Below are positions 5,807-34,655 of a DNA stretch of 64,000 nucleotides, one piece after another (positions within the stretch are counted from its first letter, which is position 1; each line of letters begins with the position of its first letter). This DNA comes from Treponemataceae bacterium. Lineage in GTDB: Bacteria; Spirochaetota; Spirochaetia; Treponematales; Rectinemataceae. The stretch spans positions 1,920,001 through 1,984,000 of the forward strand of contig CAXXHO010000003.1 of the NCBI GenBank assembly GCA_963667725.2. The letters run 5' to 3'. The notes under the pieces are model-generated. The model saw only the letters and a program-made list of their open reading frames with translations, was not told the DNA's origin and made no database searches. Made by a program: the position numbers and the translations under genes.

Positions 5807-6826
5807 CTAGCCTTGTATGTTGATACGACAAGAATCGCGTATGATCAGCTCAGTCCTCAGCGTATGTCTTTCAACCTGGAGTAGGGGGTTGCCTATCAAG
5901 GCCAATAGAGTGCGTACCGCTTTCCTGCCCATCTCATGCTCGGGTACGCGAATGGTCGTTAATGGCGGATCACAATATGATGCCAGATCGACATCATCGA
6001 AGCCGGCAAGAGAGATGTCGTCGGGAACCTTCAGTCCTGCTTCCTTGATTGCCCGCAGGGCGCCCAATGCCATTGTATCGCTCGCCGCAAAAATAGCGCT
6101 GGGAGGATTCGCCGCGGACAGGATTGTCCTTGCGGCAATCCTGCCGTTTTCAAGCGTCGGTTCGGCTCCGACGACGAGAGTCGGATCCAGTTCAACGCCG
6201 TATTCATGAAGGGCGTCCTTGTAACCCTGATATCGCATACTCGCCCGCTTGACCTTCTCGATTGGCCCTGTTATCAGCGCGATCCGCCGGTGCTTCAGCT
6301 CGAGGAGATATCTTGTCATGCGATATGCCGCTTCCCTGTTGTCAAACCCGACAAAACTGATCTCGGGGTCTTCAGCCATTTCCCAAATGACGACGCAAGG
6401 CAATCCTGATTTCGAAAATTCCTTAATCAGACTCGAGGTGGAATCGGTGACGCCCGTCAGTATCATTCCCGCAAGCCTACGCTGGCGAAATAGATTCATA
6501 TACCCAACTTCATCCTCCGCGCTGTAGTCGGTGTTCGCGATCAACAATGCCAGATCGTGGAGATGGGCTTCCTGCTGAATGCCGCGAATCGATTCCGCGT
6601 GGATGGAGCTTTTTATCGTGGGAATGATGAGTCCAATAATGGATGTCTGCTTTTTTGAAAAATCGGCCGCGTTCACGTTGTAGACATATTTGTGCTCTTC
6701 TATGACCTTCAGGACTCGCCTCCTCGTGGAGTCCTTCAGCAAGTCCGGTCGATGGAGAGCACGAGAAACCGTAGCCTTGGAGACATGTGCCAGAGCCGCG
6801 ATTTCAGACATAGTGAGTTTGGTCAT
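5807..6826 (-). CDS. LacI-family transcriptional regulator
   Basis: LTMSEIAALAHVSKATVSRAL HTH, AIFAASD, GFDD, PPLTTI; AAGGA upstream of ATG at 6826. Confidence 0.93.
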   Translation of the reverse strand: MTKLTMSEIAALAHVSKATVSRALHRPDLLKDSTRRRVLKVIEEHKYVYNVNAADFSKKQTSIIGLIIPTIKSSIHAESIRGIQQEAHLHDLALLIANTDYSAEDEVGYMNLFRQRRLAGMILTGVTDSTSSLIKEFSKSGLPCVVIWEMAEDPEISFVGFDNREAAYRMTRYLLELKHRRIALITGPIEKVKRASMRYQGYKDALHEYGVELDPTLVVGAEPTLENGRIAARTILSAANPPSAIFAASDTMALGALRAIKEAGLKVPDDISLAGFDDVDLASYCDPPLTTIRVPEHEMGRKAVRTLLALIGNPLLQVERHTLRTELIIRDSCRINIQG

Positions 6827-6942
6827 AATTTCCTTGACATAGTACACGAAATAAACCCTGGCAGAAAGTAGAAGAACAAAGGCTTCAGCGCAAATGACCA
6901 GGTCTCGAAAGAAATGTAGTCACGCCGCCTGCGCGTGAAAAA

Positions 6943-9900
6943 TCAAGCACGCAAAAGGCTCTCGATGGTGAGGCTCACGGCGCCCCTGTTGTTCTCGACG
7001 AGGCCGGCTATCCAAAGCGGATGTTCTTCGAAGAGCAGGTGGCGATATTTGCGGTAGGCCTCGGGAAAGAGAACCGCTTCGAAGATGGCTGTCTCGTCTT
7101 CGAAGGAAACGAACTCCATGGTTTCCTCGCTGGCGGTGAGGACGGGCTTGGCCGTTATGGGCCAGCCGAGGAGGCGGACGCGGCGGCCCACCTTGCGCCG
7201 CAGGTCGATGGCGCGCTCGCGGGGAGCGGCGAAGGCGCGCGGCCAGAGCTCCAGTGGATGGGAATCGAGGGTGGTACCGAGATATTTGAGCTCGGCGACG
7301 CGCTTCTTGCGTGTGGAGCCTGGGGGCGGCTCGGGGGCGCAGGACGCCTGATGAGCGCGCGGCGCCGAGGCGCGGGGCTCCGGGGCGAGGCTTTCGCCAT
7401 CGGGCGCGAAAAGTTCGAGCGGCCTGCCAGCGGCAAGGGAAGCGCCTGAGGCCCCGGGGCCGCCCGAGGCGGCGGGGCCTCCTGCCGCGCCCTCGCGCGC
7501 CGCGCAGAGGGAAAGGAGAGCCATGAGGGCGTCGGAGCGTTTCGCGCCTCCAAGGAGACTGTCGAAGGCGCCCGAGCCCACCAGGGCTTCGGCATCGGAC
7601 CGCTCGAAGCGCTGGCGACGCGCAAAGTCCTCGACGGAAAGGTAAGGCCCTCCTCGCTTCCGTTCGCGGAGCATGTCGGCGGCGACGCCCGCGCCGAGCG
7701 AGGAGAGCATGCAGAAGCCGAAGCGGATCCTGCCTCGTCGCCCTCTGCATCGCTGTTCGCTCAGGTTGATGTCGGGAGGAAGGAGGGCGATTCCCATCCG
7801 CCTCGATTCGCTCGCGTAGGCAAGCGTGGAGTAGAATCCCCCGTGGTTGGAGAGGACAGCCGCCATGAACTCGGCGGGATAGTGGGCGCGCAGATAGGCG
7901 GACTGGAAGGAGAGCATGGCATAGCTGGCTGAATGGGCCTTCACGAAGGAATAGCCTGAGAACGAACAGATCATGGCCCAGACCGCCTCGGTGCTGGCCT
8001 CGTCGGCGCCCCGCGCCGCGGCGCCCTCGAAAAAAGCGCTCCTGTATTCCTGGAGCCTGGTGTCGGCGTCTTTCTTCGAAAGGATCTTGCGGATGCCATC
8101 GGCTTCGGAAGAGGAGAAGCCCGCGAGGGCTATGGCCGCCTTCGACACGTCCTCCTGGTAGCAGAGGATGCCGTAGCTTTCGTCGAAAAGCCCCGCAAGG
8201 AGGGGATGAAAGGCCTTCCAGTGCTTGCCCCGCAGACGATCGACATATTCGTCTATATATTTGTTCGCAGCGGGACGGATGATGGATGAGTGGATGACGA
8301 GGTGCTCGAAATCCCCCCTCCCCGTCTTGATCTGCAGAAGGCGCATAGCGGGACTCTCCACATAGAAGACGCCCATCGTGTCCCCCCTCGCGAGAAGGGC
8401 GACCGTGGCGGCGTCGTCGATCGGCTTCCATTTCCCCGTATCGAAGGACGGATCGTTTTCGCGCAGGTCGGCGAGCGCGTCCCTGACGACGGCGAGGGAA
8501 CGGTTCCCGAGGAGGTCTATTTTCACGAGGCCGGCTTCCTCCGCCCCTTCCTTGTCCCAGGCGATCACCCTTATGCCGTTGCCCGTCTCCTCGATGGGGA
8601 CATGGTCGGCCAGAAGGTCCGGCACGATGATGACGCCGCCCGAATGCGTGCCCAGATGCCGCGGCAGGCCGACGATGCTCGCCGCTCGCCGCGCGATGAT
8701 CTTCCATTCCGGATCGGCCGAAGAGAGGGTTCCGTCGGTATCCACCTTGAGGGAGCGCTCGAAGTCCGAAATCTCGGCGTCGGGCATGCCGAAGGCCCTG
8801 GCGGTTTCGCGCAGGCCCGAGCGCGAGCGGAAGCAATTGTGGTTGGCCACCCTGGCCGTATGCTCGGGCCCGTAGGCCTTCACCACTTCGTCCAGAAGCG
8901 CGTCGCGCTCGTCCCAGGCGAAATCCACGTCGATGTCGGGCGGGTCTTTCCTCCCCGGGTTCAGGAAGCGTTCAAAGTAAAGGGAATGGCGGATAGGATC
9001 GACCTCGGTGATGCCGAGGCAGTAGGCGACGATGCTCGCGGCCGCGCTGCCGCGGCCGCAGATGCGCGAGGCCTTCTTTATTATGTCCCAGACCACGAGA
9101 AAATAGTCGCAGAATCCCTTGGACTCGATGAGCGCAAGTTCGCGCTCGATTCTCGCTTCCACCTCGGCGGTCACGGGCGAGTAGCGCCGCGCCGCTCCTT
9201 CGTAGACGAGGCTGCGAAGGAGTTCGGAGGATGATGCCTCGGGGCTTGCCCTATGCGTCGCTTCCGAAACGGCGTCGGCCGCCATTCCGAAACGGGGAAA
9301 GACAAAGCCCGAAAAGGGCTCTCCCAGGGCCTCGCGCGCGATGAGGGCGTTGGAGGCGAAAGCTTTTTCCATCCACGCGGCCTGGGAAGGGAGAACGGCC
9401 CAGGGGCCGGTGTCTGGGGCAACGACTGGGGCAGAGGCTGAAGCGGCGGCCGGAACGGCATTCCAGAGCGCCTCGGGCGGGTCCAGCATGTCGTCGCCGA
9501 TATCGTGGACCGTGAGGTTCGCCCCGATGGCGAGCAGTAGCCGCTGGACTTCGCGCTGCTCAGGCTCGAGAAAGCTCGCCTCGGGCGTCGCGACGGGCCT
9601 GTGGCCCGAGGCGGCGAGGCGGCGCCACTTGGCTCTGTTGCAGGGCGTGACGAGGGCGAAGAGGCAATCGCGGGGCGAAAAACGCGCGAGGAGGTTCTCG
9701 TCGTCCGTGAGGATGAAGAGGCCGCCAAGCCGGTCCGCACCTTCAGCACCGCGCGCGGCTTCCAGGATGCCGGCCACGGCTTCCCGGAGATCGTAGGGGG
9801 GACGGCGGCCCTTCCCTCGCCGCTTCGTCGGCCTGCCGGCCTTTTCGGCCGCCTCCGCGGCTGCCCTCGCGGTCAGGAGCCGCGAAATCGCCGAAAAACC

Positions 9901-27819: not shown

Positions 27820-28232
27820 ATGTGGATCTCATAGCGGCTTCCATAGAAGCATCGATCGAGGTGGATTTCTCCAGGGCTGGAGGTCCGGGCGGGCAGAACG
27901 TCAACAAAGTAAACACGAAAGTGACCGCGAGGCTCGCTATCGACGCGATACAGGGCCTGAACGCCGCCGAACGGCGCATCATGGCCTCGAAACTCGCTAA
28001 CCGCATCACCACCGAGGGCTTTCTCACCATCCAGGTAAGCGATGAGCGCACCCAGGGCGCCAACAGGCAGATAGCCTTCGAAAGGCTCCTCTCCCTCATC
28101 GTCGCCGCGGCGAAGCGCGATCCGCCCCGAATCCCCACAAAACCCGGCCGCGCCGCCCGCGAACGGCGCATGGCTTCCAAAAAAGTCCGCGGCCGCACGA
28201 AACAGGACAGGCGCGGCCCCCTCGCCGACTGA
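27816..28232 (+). CDS. arfB: Alternative ribosome rescue factor B (peptidyl-tRNA hydrolase)
   Basis: SRAGGPGGQNVNKV, RTQGAN, basic C-terminal tail PTKP..RERR..KK; ATGA overlap with gntR. Confidence 0.92.
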   Translation: MNVDLIAASIEASIEVDFSRAGGPGGQNVNKVNTKVTARLAIDAIQGLNAAERRIMASKLANRITTEGFLTIQVSDERTQGANRQIAFERLLSLIVAAAKRDPPRIPTKPGRAARERRMASKKVRGRTKQDRRGPLAD

Positions 28233-28233
28233 A

Positions 28234-28270
28234 AAGTTAAAAAATGGGGTCAGACCCCATTTTTTAACTT
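28234..28270. terminator. Perfect 18-bp inverted repeat between convergent arfB and bcp (bidirectional terminator or REP-like)
   Basis: AAGTTAAAAAATGGGGTC-A-GACCCCATTTTTTAACTT. Confidence 0.75.
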
Positions 28271-28733
28271 AAAGCCCTTCCAGGATCTTCGCGGCGTGGC
28301 CTGCGGGCGTCACCTTCGGGAAGACCTTCGCCACGATGCCGTCGCCGCCGATCACGAAGGTGGAGCGGATCACTCCCAGCACCTTCTTGCCGTACATCAT
28401 CTTCTCGCCCCAGGCGCCATATGCCGCAAGGACCTTTTTCTCCGGATCGGAGAGGAGGATGAAAGGAAGCTCGTATTTTTTCCTGAACTTCGCGTGGGCG
28501 GCAGGCGAATCCGGACTCACGCCTACGACACGAATGCCTCGCTTCGCGAATTCGCCATAATTGTCGCGGAAGGAACAAGCTTCCACCGTGCATCCGGGCG
28601 TATCGTCGCGGGGATAGAAATACAGGATAAAACCGGGCGATCCGGAACCGCCGCACAGCTCGCCGAGGGTCCAGATCCTGCCCTCCGAATCCGACAGGGA
28701 AAAATCGGGCGCCTTCATGCCTTTTTCGATCAT
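28269..28733 (-). CDS. bcp: Thioredoxin-dependent peroxiredoxin Bcp
   Basis: YFYPRDDTPGCTVEACSFRD, GVSPD, RSTFVI. Confidence 0.93.
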   Translation of the reverse strand: MIEKGMKAPDFSLSDSEGRIWTLGELCGGSGSPGFILYFYPRDDTPGCTVEACSFRDNYGEFAKRGIRVVGVSPDSPAAHAKFRKKYELPFILLSDPEKKVLAAYGAWGEKMMYGKKVLGVIRSTFVIGGDGIVAKVFPKVTPAGHAAKILEGL

Positions 28734-28842
28734 GCCGAGCCTCCGTGTGTTCCATACTACCGTTCAGTCCGTGCGCCGGCAATGTGATGTGCGAGCATGG
28801 CAGAATAATTGCCATTAACGCGACAGGCTTATATAGAAATTC

Positions 28843-28872
28843 TTGACAATCCGCAATACAATTGCATATTAT
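28843..28872 (+). promoter_or_regulatory. Leaderless promoter with a palindrome in its spacer
   Basis: TTGACA-N18-TATTAT-N7-ATG; GCAAT-ACA-ATTGC lies in the spacer. Confidence 0.6.
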
Positions 28873-28879
28873 CAAGAAT

Positions 28880-30127
28880 ATGAAGGAATCAACATCGCAC
28901 AAATCGTCCGTCATTGACGCAAAGACGAATCTCATCCCCCGCACACAGGAAAGAGAACTGCGCCGCAAAGTGGAAGAACGCCCCTGTATCCTTGTCACCG
29001 GAGCTCGCCAGACGGGAAAAACGACCCTTCTTCGGTCTTCATTCCCCGGTATTGAATATGTTTCATTCGACAGCATACTCCAGGCAGCCTCGGCATCCGA
29101 ATCCCCAGAAGCTTTTTTGCAGCGGTTTACCAAGTCGGTAATATTCGATGAAATCCAATATGCCTCCCCTCTTTTCCGCGCGCTTAAAGCCAGTATCGAT
29201 GCCGATAGGGACATGAAAGGCCAATACTTGCTCACGGGAAGCCAAACATTCGAGCTTATGAAGGGAGTGTCCGACAGTCTGGCCGGAAGAATCGGCATCA
29301 TGAGGCTGGAAACACTCTCGGCGCGTGAAATTGCCGATTCGGGCCGCTTCGACCGCGAGGCTCTGCTCCAGACACCTTTCCGCGGCGGATATCCCGAGCT
29401 ATGGCGAAGCCCCGACATCGATGCCGGTTCCTGGTTCGAAGATTATATACGTACCTATATCGAGCGCGATCTCAAGGAACTTGTGCAGGTCAGGGATCTT
29501 GTCGAATTCCGCCGATTTCTATCCGCCGCGGCTAATCGAGCAGGGCAACTCGTCAACTTCACGGATCTAGGCAGATCCTGCGGGGTTAGTCCGAATACGG
29601 CAAAAGCCTGGACAGCCGCGTTGGAGACATCAGGTATCATGTACGTCTTGCCGCCATGGTTCACGAATGCGGAAACTCGCCTCATCAAGTCGCCCAAACT
29701 ATATTTCGCCGATACAGGACTTCTCTGTGCCCTCTTGAATATCGAACATGCCGAAGATTTTGAAAAATCTTCTTCATCCGGAGCCATATGGGAAAACTTC
29801 GTATTCATAGAGTTGGTTAAAACTGGAGGCTGGATACCGGGACGAACGCTTTTTTTCTATAGGGACCACAGTGGCAATGAAGTGGATTTTGTTGGGTTTT
29901 CCGTCAATAGGCGAATTCTTGTTGAGGCCAAGTTTTCGCAACGAATCAGGCCTGAACTGCTTGGCTTTTCAGCGATAAGTCTTTCGGGAGTCGATGGCGC
30001 CAGCTTCGAGGAGGCCAAGAAAAACAAACCGGCTTGTTTTGTCGCCGCCCCGACAGCCGAGGCCGCGTTCCTGTCGATGAAAGACTTCACTCTTTACGAC
30101 CCCCGAATGGGATTGGTTCCCAATTAA
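28880..30127 (+). CDS. AAA+ ATPase (AAA_14) with DUF4143 and PD-(D/E)xK-like C-terminus
   Basis: GARQTGKT, FDEIQ, LTGS, LAGR, GGYP, KSPKLYFADTG, EVDF...VEAK. Confidence 0.88.
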   Translation: MKESTSHKSSVIDAKTNLIPRTQERELRRKVEERPCILVTGARQTGKTTLLRSSFPGIEYVSFDSILQAASASESPEAFLQRFTKSVIFDEIQYASPLFRALKASIDADRDMKGQYLLTGSQTFELMKGVSDSLAGRIGIMRLETLSAREIADSGRFDREALLQTPFRGGYPELWRSPDIDAGSWFEDYIRTYIERDLKELVQVRDLVEFRRFLSAAANRAGQLVNFTDLGRSCGVSPNTAKAWTAALETSGIMYVLPPWFTNAETRLIKSPKLYFADTGLLCALLNIEHAEDFEKSSSSGAIWENFVFIELVKTGGWIPGRTLFFYRDHSGNEVDFVGFSVNRRILVEAKFSQRIRPELLGFSAISLSGVDGASFEEAKKNKPACFVAAPTAEAAFLSMKDFTLYDPRMGLVPN

Positions 30128-30213
30128 TGGACAGCGATATCCTCTCGAGAAAACTTTAATTTATCGCGTTTTATCCGCCTGCCGATATTCACTGCAGGAA
30201 TAAAAAAATATGG

Positions 30214-30405
30214 GGCATCACTGTCTCCGCTATCGCTTCCAGATTCGAAATCTGCATAAGGCAAGCCAAGCGAGACATCGAATATATGAGAGACCAGCTG
30301 GACGCGCCCATCGTCTGGGCGGCAGACCACCGCCGGTACGAATATACTTCTTCCTGGGATAGCCTGCGATCTGCCGACGAAAAATCCTTTCTCGCCTTGC
30401 TATAA
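30214..30405 (+). pseudogene. N-terminal HTH remnant of a WYL-domain regulator
   Basis: Manual translation GITVSAIASRFEICIRQAKRDIEYMRDQLDAPIVW...RRYEY...L*. There is no start codon upstream of the HTH (in-frame stop at 30157) and no WYL domain follows. Confidence 0.75.
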
Positions 30406-30503
30406 AAGTTTTCTCCACACCTGATACGACCAAAGCGGCAAAGGATTTTTCTGATTACAGGGTCGCCCTCGATAGCGTCGAATTGAAAGAGTTAAATCCA
30501 TAG
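30399..30503 (+). pseudogene. Probable C-terminal remnant of type I-C cas7 (csd2)
   Basis: AIKVFSTPDTTKAAKDFSDYRVALDSVELKELNP* resembles the Cas7c C-terminus pattern (V/I)KV...PARSFxDYxV...GVExKE. Confidence 0.6.
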
Positions 30504-30526
30504 TACCTGTAGTGTAAAGAAACCCC

Positions 30527-30587
30527 TTGACCGCCAATATAGTTGGCGTTTATCATGACAAACGCCAACTATATTGGCATTTATCAT
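30527..30587 (+). promoter_or_regulatory. Promoter inside a 46-bp near-perfect palindrome (tandem operators)
   Basis: TTGACC-N18-TATCAT; GCCAATATAGTTGGCGTTT-ATCATGAC-AAACGCCAACTATATTGGC at 30533-30578. Confidence 0.75.
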
Positions 30588-30609
30588 AACCGTTTGAATG
30601 GAGGGCGAT

Positions 30610-31785
30610 ATGAGCAACGGCTATCGGAAGAGGGCCTTGGACCTGAGCTCAACACTTGCCCAAAGATCGGCATTCTTTTTCGGTCCTCGCCAGACGGGAA
30701 AGTCATCCTATGTCCGAGAGCAGCTCGGCTCGCTGCCCGCGGCAAGCTTCAATCTTTTGGATGCTGGCTTGCGCTTGCGGCTCTTGGCTGATCCGACGCT
30801 CATGCGTCAGGAGATAGAGGCGCGACAGCTTCGGGATTGCGTCGTATTCATCGACGAGATCCAGAAGTGTCCGGAACTTCTCGACGAAGTACAGCTTCTG
30901 ATCGAGGAGAGAGGCATACGTTTTCTCCTTTCGGGCTCGAGCGCGCGAAAACTGAAACGGGCGGGTACGAACTTACTAGGCGGGCGGGCGCGGACGAAAC
31001 ACCTCCACCCCTTCGTCTACCCCGAGGTGTCAGGAGACGAGGATCTTCTCGACAGGGTCATGGCGCGGGGTTTGTTGCCTCCCCATTACCTGTCGGAGGC
31101 ACCGGATGAGGACCTGCGATCGTACGTGGACACTTATCTGTCGGAGGAAATCGCGGCGGAGGGGCAAGCGCGGAACTTGCCAGCCTTTGCCCGTTTTCTG
31201 CAAACCGCGGCGACACTCAACGCGAAGATGATCAACTACACGAACGTCGCAAACGACGCTCAAGTTCCGCGGCAGACAGTCCGTCTTTGGTTCCAGATCC
31301 TCGTCGATACGATGCTGGGCTACGAACTCCCGTCATATACATCCACGGTGAAACGAAAATCGGTGAAGACCGCGAAGTTCTATTTCTTCGATACGGGGAT
31401 CGTGCGGACGCTGCGAAGGCTCCCCTCCATCCTTCCCGAAAGCGCCGACTTCGGGGAGTTCTTTGAACAGTACATCTTCATGGAGCTGCGGGCTTGGATC
31501 GATTATCGGAAGCCAGAGGAGCGACTCACTTATTGGCGCTCGCTTTCAGGGTACGAAGTCGACTTTCTTCTAGGCGAGGCGGTGGCGATAGAAGTAAAGT
31601 CTACGACCCTCGCCCAGGAGAAACATCTTTCGGGTCTTCGGGCTCTACGAGACGAGGGCAAATTCAAACGCTTCATCCTCGTGTGCAGAGATGAGCGCCC
31701 CCGGAAGCGCGACGGCATCGAGATACTGCCCTGGCGGGAATTTCTTGGCCGGCTCTGGGCAAACGAGTTTTCCCAAAGAGGATAA
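30610..31785 (+). CDS. AAA+ ATPase (AAA_14) with DUF4143 and PD-(D/E)xK-like C-terminus
   Basis: GPRQTGKS, IDEIQK, SGSSARKL, LLGGRA, KFYFFDTG, YWR..EVDF..IEVK; RBS GGAGG. Confidence 0.88.
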   Translation: MSNGYRKRALDLSSTLAQRSAFFFGPRQTGKSSYVREQLGSLPAASFNLLDAGLRLRLLADPTLMRQEIEARQLRDCVVFIDEIQKCPELLDEVQLLIEERGIRFLLSGSSARKLKRAGTNLLGGRARTKHLHPFVYPEVSGDEDLLDRVMARGLLPPHYLSEAPDEDLRSYVDTYLSEEIAAEGQARNLPAFARFLQTAATLNAKMINYTNVANDAQVPRQTVRLWFQILVDTMLGYELPSYTSTVKRKSVKTAKFYFFDTGIVRTLRRLPSILPESADFGEFFEQYIFMELRAWIDYRKPEERLTYWRSLSGYEVDFLLGEAVAIEVKSTTLAQEKHLSGLRALRDEGKFKRFILVCRDERPRKRDGIEILPWREFLGRLWANEFSQRG

Positions 31786-31787
31786 CC

Positions 31788-31832
31788 TTGTGCAACGAAT
31801 ACGACCTTATTCCGATCTCCGCGCTCCAGCAA
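31788..31832 (+). pseudogene. Probable N-terminal remnant of type I-C cas4
   Basis: AGAGGA RBS, then TTG-CNEYDLIPISALQQ, resembling the Cas4(I-C) start M..EDDLIPISALQH. The following Cys motif and nuclease domain are absent. Confidence 0.6.
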
Positions 31833-31879
31833 GTTCACTTCTACGACCGACGCCATCGCCGAGTGCTGTCAGTTCAAGA

Positions 31880-32332
31880 TCAACTCTTCTTTATCGGAAA
31901 GTAGATCACCGTCTCTAGCTTATCGGGAGGCGTGTCCTCGGGGGAATTGAGATATTCCTCGAACATGAAGGTTTCCATCTGGGCGCCTTTTTCCTTTACG
32001 AAAGCCGTCAGGGCATTGTAGGTTTCCTCGAGAGTCGCGTACGGCCCCGTATGCTTGGCCGTCGCGAAAGAACCTCCATGCAAAACGCTCGCCGCGACCC
32101 TGCCCTCGCCGGCCGCGGCCTTGGCCAAGGGGAAGCCGACCTCCACGTCCAGGTCATTCATGTCCATGTTGTAGTAAATGACGAAAGGCGCTCCCGCGAA
32201 GGGAATGCCGCTTTTCCCCATGTACGCGGCGATCTCCCCGTACATCGCGCCCATCGTGTCCGGCAGCGCCGACACCGGCGTCCGGTAGCGGATGGAAAGC
32301 GTGGGTGTTTCCTTCCTTTCAATGATCTGCAT
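31880..32332 (-). CDS. GyrI-like small-molecule-binding protein
   Basis: GAPF.IYY, DVEVGFP, HTGPY..LEETY, EEYLNSP..LETVIYFP. Confidence 0.9.
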   Translation of the reverse strand: MQIIERKETPTLSIRYRTPVSALPDTMGAMYGEIAAYMGKSGIPFAGAPFVIYYNMDMNDLDVEVGFPLAKAAAGEGRVAASVLHGGSFATAKHTGPYATLEETYNALTAFVKEKGAQMETFMFEEYLNSPEDTPPDKLETVIYFPIKKS

Positions 32333-32379
32333 GCCAACCTCCATAATCTAATGATGGTTCGATGATGGCATGGGGTATA

Positions 32380-32395
32380 TGACATCTGTATGTCG
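32380..32395 (-). promoter_or_regulatory. Candidate WYL-activator binding palindrome upstream of the gyrI-like gene
   Basis: TGACA-N6-TGTCG; no canonical -35 element seen. Confidence 0.5.
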
Positions 32396-32408
32396 GGGAT
32401 AAAATCGA

Positions 32409-33344
32409 TTATTCGTACATTCGCGAAATTTCTCCGGCCATGGTCTTGATTATGTCTCGCAGGTGGGGAGGTTCGAGCACTTCAACATAGGCGCCGTAGC
32501 TGAGGATGTAGCCGTACATCCACCCGTCCTCAGGCATACGCGTCCTGACGATGAGCCCGCCGTCCTCGGTTCGTTCCATATCTTCCTTATTGTAGAACTC
32601 TTCCACCAAGGGAACCATCTTTTCCGAGAATTTCAAGGTCAATTCCAAGACATTCCCCGTCTTCTCCGGAGCGTTGTCGCGGGAAAAATCCTCAAAGCTG
32701 TGACTCCGCCGCCGGAACCGCTCGCCCAGAATTTCCGGCTCCCGAATCCGCGATATCCGGAACAGTCGATACCCTTCCCGCAGGCGGCAGTAGGCGTAGA
32801 GATACCAGGCGCGCCACTGGAACACGATCGTCATCGGTTCCACGATCCGCGATTCGCGTTCCAGCCGGTTGTTGGTATAGTCCATCTTGAGAAGCCGTCC
32901 CGAGTTCACCGCGGCCTGGACGGTCTTGAATGCCTGCCGCTGGTCAGGTCCTCCGCCGAGCATGCTGAAATCGATGTGGAGCTTTTCTTCCCGATCCTTG
33001 AAATCCCCATCCTCGGCCGTCGGCACGAGGCCGCGCATCTTCTCCAGGGTATCGTCGATCCGCCTGTCGTCCAGCGAGTCGCCGATGCCGCGCAGGGCGG
33101 TGATGATGAAGAAGAGGTCGTCCACGGTCACCAAGCGCCGGTCCATCTTATAACCTTCCATGATGCCGTAGCCACCCGACGGCCCCTGGACGCTGATCAC
33201 CGGTATGCCCGCGAGGTTTATGGCTTCCATGTCCCGCTGGATGGTCCTGACCGAAACGCCGAAGCGCTCGGCCAGTTTGCCGGCGCTCGCCAGATCACGG
33301 TTGAGAAGGTAGACGACGATGGACAGGAGCCGGTCAATTTTCAT
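32409..33344 (-). CDS. YafY-family HTH-WYL-WCX transcriptional regulator
   Basis: MKIDRLLSI, LAERFGVSVRTIQRD, GGYGI, RIVEP, WYLYAYC, FRISRI, VEVLEP. Confidence 0.93.
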   Translation of the reverse strand: MKIDRLLSIVVYLLNRDLASAGKLAERFGVSVRTIQRDMEAINLAGIPVISVQGPSGGYGIMEGYKMDRRLVTVDDLFFIITALRGIGDSLDDRRIDDTLEKMRGLVPTAEDGDFKDREEKLHIDFSMLGGGPDQRQAFKTVQAAVNSGRLLKMDYTNNRLERESRIVEPMTIVFQWRAWYLYAYCRLREGYRLFRISRIREPEILGERFRRRSHSFEDFSRDNAPEKTGNVLELTLKFSEKMVPLVEEFYNKEDMERTEDGGLIVRTRMPEDGWMYGYILSYGAYVEVLEPPHLRDIIKTMAGEISRMYE

Positions 33345-33412
33345 GATGATTGGCTTGAAGCATGGTTCGCGCGGCTTCCCCTTGTCAAGGTAAACCGCCG
33401 ACAGGTGTGGGC

Positions 33413-33455
33413 ATTCTTTGCAATTTGTCAATGCCACTGACATTTTGCAAAGAAT
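33413..33455. repeat. Inverted repeat, 16/18 match with 7-bp spacer
   Basis: ATTCTTTGCAATTTGTCA-ATGCCAC-TGACATTTTGCAAAGAAT. Confidence 0.7.
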
Positions 33456-33578: not shown

Positions 33579-33821
33579 ATGCCCAAGTTTACCTTCAATC
33601 TCGGCAGTTTTATCGTGAATGTGGCGATCGGATGGTTTCTCATGTCCTTCATGCAGGCGGCGGTGAGCGCTTTACGCGCGGGGGCGCGAAACGATATCAT
33701 TCCACGCTTCAAGACTATCGCCTTTTTCCACGATAGGCCTGCCGCGATACTCAATATCGCCATCATGGCGGGGATCTGGATCGTTACGACGACGCTGTAT
33801 TTCACCCTGAAGCGAAGGTAG
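33579..33821 (+). CDS. Small membrane protein (80 aa, two TM segments)
   Basis: Strong promoter, GAGGAG RBS, two hydrophobic stretches, KRR tail. Confidence 0.7.
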   Translation: MPKFTFNLGSFIVNVAIGWFLMSFMQAAVSALRAGARNDIIPRFKTIAFFHDRPAAILNIAIMAGIWIVTTTLYFTLKRR

Positions 33822-33830
33822 GGCCACCCG

Positions 33831-34655
33831 ATGGCGAATACGCCCGCATTCATGACAGCCTTTCCCCTCACCGCGAGGGCGGCGGTACACACCCCGCTCG
33901 TCTTCCGCGCGGGGCTCTACGCAGCGGACGGCCTGCCCTTGCCCTCGCTCGAGGGCATACGAGACTTCGCCCATTTCGCGGGGATAGAGGATGGGGCCAT
34001 CCGCACAGCCCTTTCGCGGGGCAAGCGCGACGGATCGCTTGTCGTGGAAGCCGATCCCGCCGGCCGCAATCGGTATTCTCTCGCGCCCGCGACCTTCGCC
34101 ATGGGAACAGCCCAGATCCGCGCGGATCAGAGGCCTGAAGGGTTTCTGCTCGCGGTTTTCTCGTTTACGACGCCGGAACAGGAGGAGCGCGCCTCGCTGC
34201 GCGCGCTGCTTAAATCCTTCGGCTTCCATAAGCTGGCGCAGAACACCTATATCCATGGCAGGATCGAAACCGAAGGGCTCAAGACCGCCATTCGCGAGCT
34301 CGGGCTCGAGAATAATTTTTTCCTTTTCACCTGTCCTGATATCGATGACGAAAACCTAGTCGCCCGCGTGCTTTCGCTCTTCGATCTGGAGTCGCGACGG
34401 AAGAAGCTGAGCGAATATCTTTGCCTCCTGGAGGATTTCCTTCACCAGGATCTATCGGGCGACGAATTCGCCCGAAGGCTTCTCTACGTCGGCGCGGTGC
34501 ATTGGGAGCATGTCGAGGCGAGCGAGCCGCCCATTCCCGTAAAGTATCTTCCGGCCGACTATGCCTTCAAGGAGATCCAGGCCTTCTACGGCCTTAAGCT
34601 CGAGGAAGGGCGCGCCGCGATGCTTGGATACTTCCGGAGAGTATTCGGCGGGTAA
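33831..34655 (+). CDS. Divergent PaaX-like transcriptional regulator
   Basis: GIEDGAIRTALSR wHTH, RYSL, central LAVFSF..E.R..LR..L..GF..LAQNTYI block, C-terminal P.P..YLPAD. Confidence 0.6.
   Translation: MANTPAFMTAFPLTARAAVHTPLVFRAGLYAADGLPLPSLEGIRDFAHFAGIEDGAIRTALSRGKRDGSLVVEADPAGRNRYSLAPATFAMGTAQIRADQRPEGFLLAVFSFTTPEQEERASLRALLKSFGFHKLAQNTYIHGRIETEGLKTAIRELGLENNFFLFTCPDIDDENLVARVLSLFDLESRRKKLSEYLCLLEDFLHQDLSGDEFARRLLYVGAVHWEHVEASEPPIPVKYLPADYAFKEIQAFYGLKLEEGRAAMLGYFRRVFGG

Follow-up and report, generated by a model that had tools for sequence, protein, structure and literature searches.

Remnant of a type I-C CRISPR–Cas locus around an intact PDC-S01 candidate defence gene in a Treponemataceae genome

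Among the defined CRISPR–Cas subtypes, type I-C (Dvulg) with an associated WYL regulator is the closest counterpart of the locus described here, the likeness lying in gene order and in the sequences of Cas7c and Cas4. The locus differs from such systems in that only stumps of the WYL, cas7 and cas4 genes are present and in that an ATPase–nuclease gene stands between cas7 and cas4. Two ATPases are encoded here, and both share the AAA_14 + DUF4143 make-up of the PADLOC entry PDC-S01. In the consulted sections of PMC12988326, PDC-S01 is presented as an ATPase fused to a PD-(D/E)xK domain and as the fourth most common defence entry, validation being pending for most PDCs, while the consulted part of PMC13356809 gives only the abundance of PDC-S01. 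DUF4143/COG1373 is classed as PD-(D/E)XK, function unknown, in the excerpted text of PMC3424549, and other AAA ATPases accompany type III systems according to the part consulted of Shah et al. (PMC6546367). The literature searched held no report of anti-phage or nuclease activity of PDC-S01 and no description of a cas7–ATPase–cas4 arrangement; the supplementary tables of Payne, which lay outside the search, may bear on PDC-S01 contexts. Compared with PDC-S01 at large, the clade considered below is tied to the cas7–cas4 junction of type I-C loci, where it likely supplies the promoter of the adaptation genes. The arrangement also resembles that of embedded defence genes, in that a candidate defence gene is nested co-directionally in a larger immune operon; here, the host is CRISPR–Cas and both directions of loss are seen.

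The window, a 64,000-nt stretch of Treponemataceae DNA, comes from a genome of 4.2 Mb that is 97% complete, with 6.3% contamination. We read the features listed in Table 1, with a probability of about 0.7, as the remnant of a WYL-associated type I-C CRISPR–Cas locus in the bcp–aspS interval, left around an intact AAA_14/DUF4143 (PDC-S01) gene, ATPase2, which, judging from sequence comparison, is likely self-promoted and would be a stand-alone defence candidate rather than a Cas protein. The scar itself is a real CRISPR–Cas scar, more layered than first stated. The original prediction, made from the DNA letters, had recognized three fragments in the order of a WYL–cas3–cas5–cas8c–cas7–[X]–cas4–cas1–cas2 operon; all three turned out to be real, on the plus strand and in the order claimed, and this ancestral order is present in relatives (e.g. 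L021), with ATPase homologues located between cas7 and cas4 in their intact loci. Neither Pfam nor NCBIfam recognized any of the three fragments; profiles made from the relatives matched both the Cas7c and the Cas4 peptides. Indeed, in a search of the genome as 123,757 translated segments, the best match of a 36-aa Cas7-tail profile (tails of nine relatives) was the scar (E 2.9e-8; next 0.41), as was that of a 30-aa Cas4-start profile (starts of 16 relatives; E 1e-3, next 0.25), so that a chance match is unlikely, as had been argued from collinearity. The stumps are 80–89% identical in DNA to intact genes. Furthermore, one contig of the probable source run spans 28852–31964 with no differences, and a groundwater metagenome of a separate study carries the entire region, all junctions included, in a single contig. 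No complete cas gene was found in the genome: L017 proteins used as queries gave no tblastn match to cas3, cas5, cas8, cas7, cas4, cas1 or cas2 at E 1e-3, TIGR00287 detected no cas1, and a pattern search found no I-C repeat. With cas7 and cas4 reduced to a tail and a start, the locus is not a functional type I-C system; it is a type I-C remnant, its fragments being homologous to and collinear with an intact I-C locus beside the same bcp (L021).

Table 1. Features of the scar and its surroundings (positions in the window)
Feature	Position	Strand	Description
bcp	28269..28733	-	AhpC/TSA peroxiredoxin (Pfam AhpC-TSA); left backbone gene; also adjoins the intact I-C locus in L021
Variable segment	28761..31847		Replaced by 52 different bases in congener G002, which aligns with the window as far as 28760 and resumes at 31848; congener-type loose end at 31848 in run X1
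Predicted ATPase1 promoter	28838..28879	+	TTGACA at 28843, imperfect inverted repeat; 91% nt match upstream of the G015 homologue
ATPase1	28880..30127	+	Second intact AAA_14 + DUF4143 (PDC-S01) gene; 25% identical to ATPase2
Intergenic DNA preceding the WYL promoter in relatives	30145..30210	+	74% to L023, 72% to L028, 67% to L021
WYL regulator stump	30211..30398	+	HTH region, about codons 19–80
Filler	30399..30423	+	30408–30423 probably first half of a type I-E-like repeat; overlaps the cas7 tail by CTG
cas7c 3′ stump	30421..30517	+	Last ~32 codons; 1-nt frameshift near 30494
Predicted ATPase2 promoter and putative operators	30527..30578	+	TTGACC at 30527–32, TATCAT at 30551–56
ATPase2	30610..31785	+	Intact, 391 aa; AAA_14 + DUF4143, COG1373-type, PADLOC PDC-S01
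cas4 5′ stump	31788..31851	+	21 codons; RBS within the last codons of the ATPase; 4-nt CGAC overlap with backbone (31848–31851)
GyrI-like gene	31880..32344	-	Right backbone; common to congeners G001 and G002

Loss of DNA on both sides of the ATPase, earlier ascribed to two deletions, is borne out, but the scar has four junctions (30210/11, 30398/99, 30421–23 and 31848–51; J1–J4). At J1, intergenic DNA (30145–30210), which aligns with what lies ahead of the WYL promoter in L023, L028 and L021, is fused to about codon 19 of WYL, ~150 nt with the operator, RBS, start and first ~18 codons being deleted. The ATG at 30127 was rejected as the WYL start, since the DNA there corresponds to upstream intergenic sequence in relatives. 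The stump protein is 85% identical to the WYL regulator of L021 and 73% identical to that of L013 (E 3e-29; PADLOC WYL, E 5.5e-4), which agrees with the WYL assignment first made. Only the HTH region is left: the start and the C-terminal ~245 codons are gone, and neither WYL/WCX domains nor an own promoter are present. Homology ends at 30398 (J2) and not, as initially placed, at 30405; nor does WYL run directly into Cas7c, a 22-nt filler (30399–30420) lying between them. Within the filler and the overlap that joins it to the cas7 tail at J3, positions 30408–30423 match both repeats of a mini-array in L023 at 14 of 16 nt. This two-repeat mini-array stands before the same ATPase, and a related repeat forms a nine-copy array with a 61-nt period in G046, as would fit type I-E. 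Type I-E repeats are palindromic, 28–29 nt long and arranged in arrays of 61-nt period. Judged by these matches, the 3′ part of the filler is probably half of a type I-E-like repeat, of which only the 16-nt half is present. The exact leader-plus-half-repeat junction occurs in none of 68 other family genomes, and the full L023-type repeat was found in two of 251 order genomes, in single copies. The cas7 tail is 80% identical in nucleotides to L022 and 77% to L028 over 111 nt; it is a Cas7c C-terminus as proposed, except that the end read at 30503, ‘...ELNP*’, is a product of the frameshift, the native cas7c end being ‘...SIVPVV*’ at 30517. For cas4, the TTG start at 31788 and its RBS (AGAGGA, 31777–31782) hold, and the match, 89% in nucleotides to L028, extends to 31851, not 31832; it is here, at J4, that the stump meets the backbone. 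Two of the four junctions have overlaps of 3–4 nt; the locus was likely trimmed in several deletion events whose ends overlapped by a few nucleotides.

A scan of genome contigs gave 53 loci, in which cas genes were named by NCBIfam TIGR01876/01863/02589/00372/03640/01573. One of these, L021, reads bcp–WYL–cas3–cas5c–cas8c–cas7c–ATPase–cas4–cas1–cas2–array, with an ATPase 95% identical in amino acids; the ATPases found with the full cassette are 95–96% identical, one of them standing beside the same bcp. An intact I-C locus between bcp and aspS of a relative, which the original prediction envisaged, is thus matched on one side: L021 abuts bcp, but its aspS side is unassembled in G037. The order cas7–ATPase–cas4–cas1–cas2 is found in L017 (G030), L021, L028, L029 and L031, and L028, L029, L031 and L017 have the same cas order as L021 at other genomic sites, L031 having one additional gene ahead of the ATPase; the sequence of L027 breaks off within cas4, and those of L022 and L026 open shortly before the ATPase. 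In intact relatives, Cas5c, Cas8c, Cas7c and Cas1c score above the NCBIfam cut-offs and the array has a 32-nt repeat. Assignment of the divergent Cas7 of L027, L028 and L031 to type I-B was considered and discarded, as all score as I-C. Between L021 and L028, Cas7 is ~30% identical, whereas Cas4 and Cas1 are 89–91% identical. In addition, the intact loci L017, L028 and L121/L168 have a complete cas7 of another kind and, stranded behind it, the cas7 tail found in the window. The slot between WYL and the ATPase has therefore been refilled several times, and because of this the cas7 tail of the window may possibly have been a relic already before CRISPR was lost. In L028, 7,978 nt separate the positions equivalent to J2 and J3. 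Removal of cas3, cas5, cas8c and most of cas7 had been predicted; DNA was indeed lost, but it need not have been a simple cas3–5–8c–7 run, given the probable type I-E-like half repeat and the relic tail. Among side observations on these loci, second cas7c 3′ ends behind a complete unrelated cas7c lie at L017:8154–8310, L028:9631–9910 and L168:5554–5852 and look like footprints of interference-module replacement; L031, otherwise intact, has at 8931–9900 a DinD-like gene and an apparent short cas4 5′ fragment, which separate cas7 from the ATPase; and L022, from a record labelled Candidatus Shapirobacteria, has a cassette 95% identical to the spirochaete one, which suggests misbinning or recent transfer.

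In a tree of 36 rows, 16 rows form one clade (95/91) with all CRISPR-linked and orphan copies; for the 20 rows outside it, the flanks fetched gave no cas match. Within the clade, eight copies precede cas4 and eight are orphans. CRISPR traces accompany six of the orphans (the window, L023, L024, L025, L030 and L101), and an identical pair (G070/G071), without CRISPR traces, occupies the same site as L101. We infer that the ATPase entered a type I-C locus once. Since the orphans had been found by an ATPase search, which favours survivors, the control was anchored on cas4. Across 68 family genomes, 20 cas4 loci were found: the ATPase is intact in 5, reduced to an internally deleted stub in 6 and absent from 9. 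The stubs keep the promoter region and, in four of five independent events (L114, L115, L120 and L127, from G053, G057, G064 and G034), an in-frame mini-ORF ending at most 17 nt from cas4 (P about 0.045, post hoc), which is possibly kept for translational coupling. The stub of L115 carries two in-frame internal deletions. In L123 the stub is frameshifted and other genes are inserted, and in L129, the sister of L127, the mini-ORF has since been broken. Arrays of 19–57 repeats are found in loci without an intact ATPase (L163, L164 and L168–L170). The cas4-anchored control rules out one-way retention or addiction by the ATPase: losses have gone in both directions, and thus CRISPR does not need the ATPase, nor does the ATPase need CRISPR to be kept. 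The two likely work independently, and the ATPase is best read as an independent embedded passenger, likely lending its promoter to the adaptation genes. Its survival of CRISPR loss, the central point of the original prediction, stands in so far as the gene is intact, but is neither special to this genome nor one-way, as relatives drop the ATPase and keep CRISPR.

ATPase2 matches AAA_14 (PF13173) with 67.8 bits (cut-off 27) and DUF4143 (PF13635) with 115.8 bits, and the two ATPases match seven PADLOC PDC-S01 models, with best E values of 4e-55 and 5e-94. Walker A (GPRQTGKS) and Walker B (FIDE) are intact; across 25 rows, G25, K31, D82 and E83 are invariant. PD-(D/E)xK-type residues are likewise present, E286, D318 and E328 being invariant and K330 conserved in at least 90% of the same rows. 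The predicted model has a pLDDT of 92. A fold search with residues 1–270 gave the archaeal Walker-type ATPases 2qen and 2fna as closest (Z 15.7 and 15.0), followed by NLR/STAND proteins, and no PDB relative was found by sequence. The predicted promoter is sigma-70-like and overlaps with two 15-nt palindromes (30533–47 and 30564–78) at a distance of 31 nt from each other. Similar palindromic elements lie upstream of CRISPR-linked and of several non-CRISPR homologues; therefore, the promoter and palindromes are part of the ATPase gene. Where the locus is intact, cas4 begins ~6 nt past the ATPase stop and has its RBS inside the ATPase end, and thus the ATPase promoter likely serves cas4–cas1–cas2.

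Selection to keep ATPase2 is modestly supported, and that the gene, though dispensable, has been retained for a function of its own seems to us slightly better than an even bet. Compared with the three closest copies, its dN/dS is 0.056–0.081, a pairwise estimate that includes the time before the deletion. In a strain that has undergone the same deletions, ATPase2 differs at five positions, four of them silent and the fifth V329I (P=0.014), and the g10 orphans G067 and G070/G071 diverge at dS 0.505 and dN 0.045 (dN/dS about 0.09). The cas4 stump has accumulated 6.5 replacement and 0.5 silent changes relative to L028 (P=0.0008 vs ATPase), an excess that is not significant in its first 14 codons alone (P=0.15). 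Alternatively, the scar may be the same and the ATPase may have survived by chance, as a neutral or selfish passenger still undecayed since CRISPR loss is recent. This we consider rather unlikely. The WYL stump shows no decay (dN/dS 0.10 vs L021), and CRISPR loss may therefore be recent. Moreover, among the 37 of 38 strain differences listed, none falls within 30128–30609, where several would be expected of neutral DNA changing at the silent rate of the ATPase; the ATPase differences may therefore be recombination imports. A passenger is also compatible with the orphans that have been deleted (G079), turned into a pseudogene (G062) or deprived of the catalytic lysine and so probably broken (G075), with the six deletions among the 20 cas4 loci and with ten further tblastn matches to the family in the genome. 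Weighing against chance survival, the gene and its promoter were spared on both sides with differing breakpoints in the window, L023, L024, L025, L030 and L101, and the differences cited above, both from the same-deletion strain and between the g10 orphans, are predominantly silent. Two of three strain differences in ATPase1 are replacements. The groundwater strain has 24 differences in bcp (28374–28694) and few elsewhere, which suggests a recombination tract.

As to the history of the locus, an ATPase with its own promoter and twin palindromes would have been acquired a single time by a type I-C locus, in the position between cas7 and cas4, after which its promoter would likely have driven cas4–cas1–cas2. 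The upstream interference block would then have been swapped repeatedly, leaving the old cas7 tail stranded; a type I-E-like block probably once occupied the slot between WYL and the ATPase in the window, and CRISPR would finally have been deleted on both sides of the ATPase. At the protein level, the AAA+ domain would respond to a phage or DNA trigger by activating the C-terminal nuclease, whereas a helix-turn-helix-like middle region would repress the gene's own promoter at the palindromes. It is conceivable that the ATPase is instead a true CRISPR accessory, repressing or assisting cas4–cas1–cas2 through the operators, in which case the window holds a regulator now purposeless. Its fixed place 6 nt before cas4, its staying with cas4–cas1–cas2 through interference-module swaps and the retention of the promoter region and of most mini-ORFs upon deletion would fit such a role. 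We nevertheless regard it as improbable, because 15 of the 20 cas4 loci have no intact ATPase, several of them with long arrays, half of the copies in the clade are orphans, similar palindromes precede non-CRISPR homologues and the mini-ORF of L129 is broken. A more elaborate version, in which the PDC-S01 ATPase–nuclease is a phage-responsive autorepressor that gates spacer acquisition, is doubtful: the twin operators would cover the promoter of ATPase–cas4–cas1–cas2, a trigger would switch acquisition on, and lineages would either trim the ATPase to an in-frame leader peptide, making adaptation constitutive, or keep the ATPase alone. If true, it would give one of the commonest untested defence candidates its first function and add a new level to the regulation of CRISPR.

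The bcp–aspS interval is a variable site, as G009 and G012 have bcp next to aspS. This adjacency, the lack of the ATPase and cas pieces at the site in both congeners and the company that the cas7 tail keeps with the ATPase in other loci could mean that the fragments (cas7 tail–ATPase–cas4 start) arrived already truncated, by recombination into a hot spot. Such an arrival is very improbable, given that the ancestral order is preserved in the WYL stump and the DNA upstream of it, that L021 has the whole locus beside bcp and that no terminal repeats or recombinase gene were seen. An origin of the fragments from chance matching or chimeric assembly, as their absence from Pfam and NCBIfam matches and the 6.3% contamination might suggest, is already refuted by their DNA identity to intact genes, by the top profile matches of the genome falling at the scars and by single contigs of two studies crossing all junctions. 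Several further features of the interval deserve mention. ATPase1 is absent from this place in L021; it has a palindromic promoter, with the ATG 7 nt past the −10 box, and is likely leaderless, and its closest match (G015) sits among cell-surface polysaccharide genes. In run X1, a loose end hints at a further copy of the ATPase1 promoter elsewhere in the sample. The rest of the bcp–aspS interval is filled by genes common to congeners, namely, the GyrI-like gene with an intact HTH–WYL–WCX regulator (31880–33443) and a PaaX-like regulator (33579–34655). In L175 (G017:C131, about 5980–7227), the aspS contig has, past a PaaX-like gene and beside a transposase-like ORF, a CRISPR array whose repeat is 36 nt long; it is probably in the same interval, a different CRISPR type at the hot spot. 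At the end of G001:C63 (L019:6394–6961), unrelated DNA with insertion-sequence-like ends occupies the site, and the G001 contig breaks there. A REP-like element of ~38 nt (28232–28270), with several near copies on contigs C4 and C5, stands between an arfB-like gene and bcp.

As CRISPR–Cas decay is common, the scar itself is ordinary, and the gene that survives in it represents a CRISPR-embedded variant of a known family; what is added here is the scar, together with the losses in both directions and the in-frame stubs. The value of the locus lies in the natural experiment that it offers on PDC-S01, a very widespread family and a candidate for defence. Within one clade, the gene is found embedded in CRISPR, left as an orphan after CRISPR was lost, or deleted while its promoter region persisted; these three states are evidence against an essential Cas role. 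Near-identical alleles (95–96% in amino acids) exist in intact and orphan contexts, and the putative operator points to a testable site. The locus also illustrates interference modules swapped beside a constant adaptation unit, and it extends the notion of embedded defence genes to CRISPR operons.
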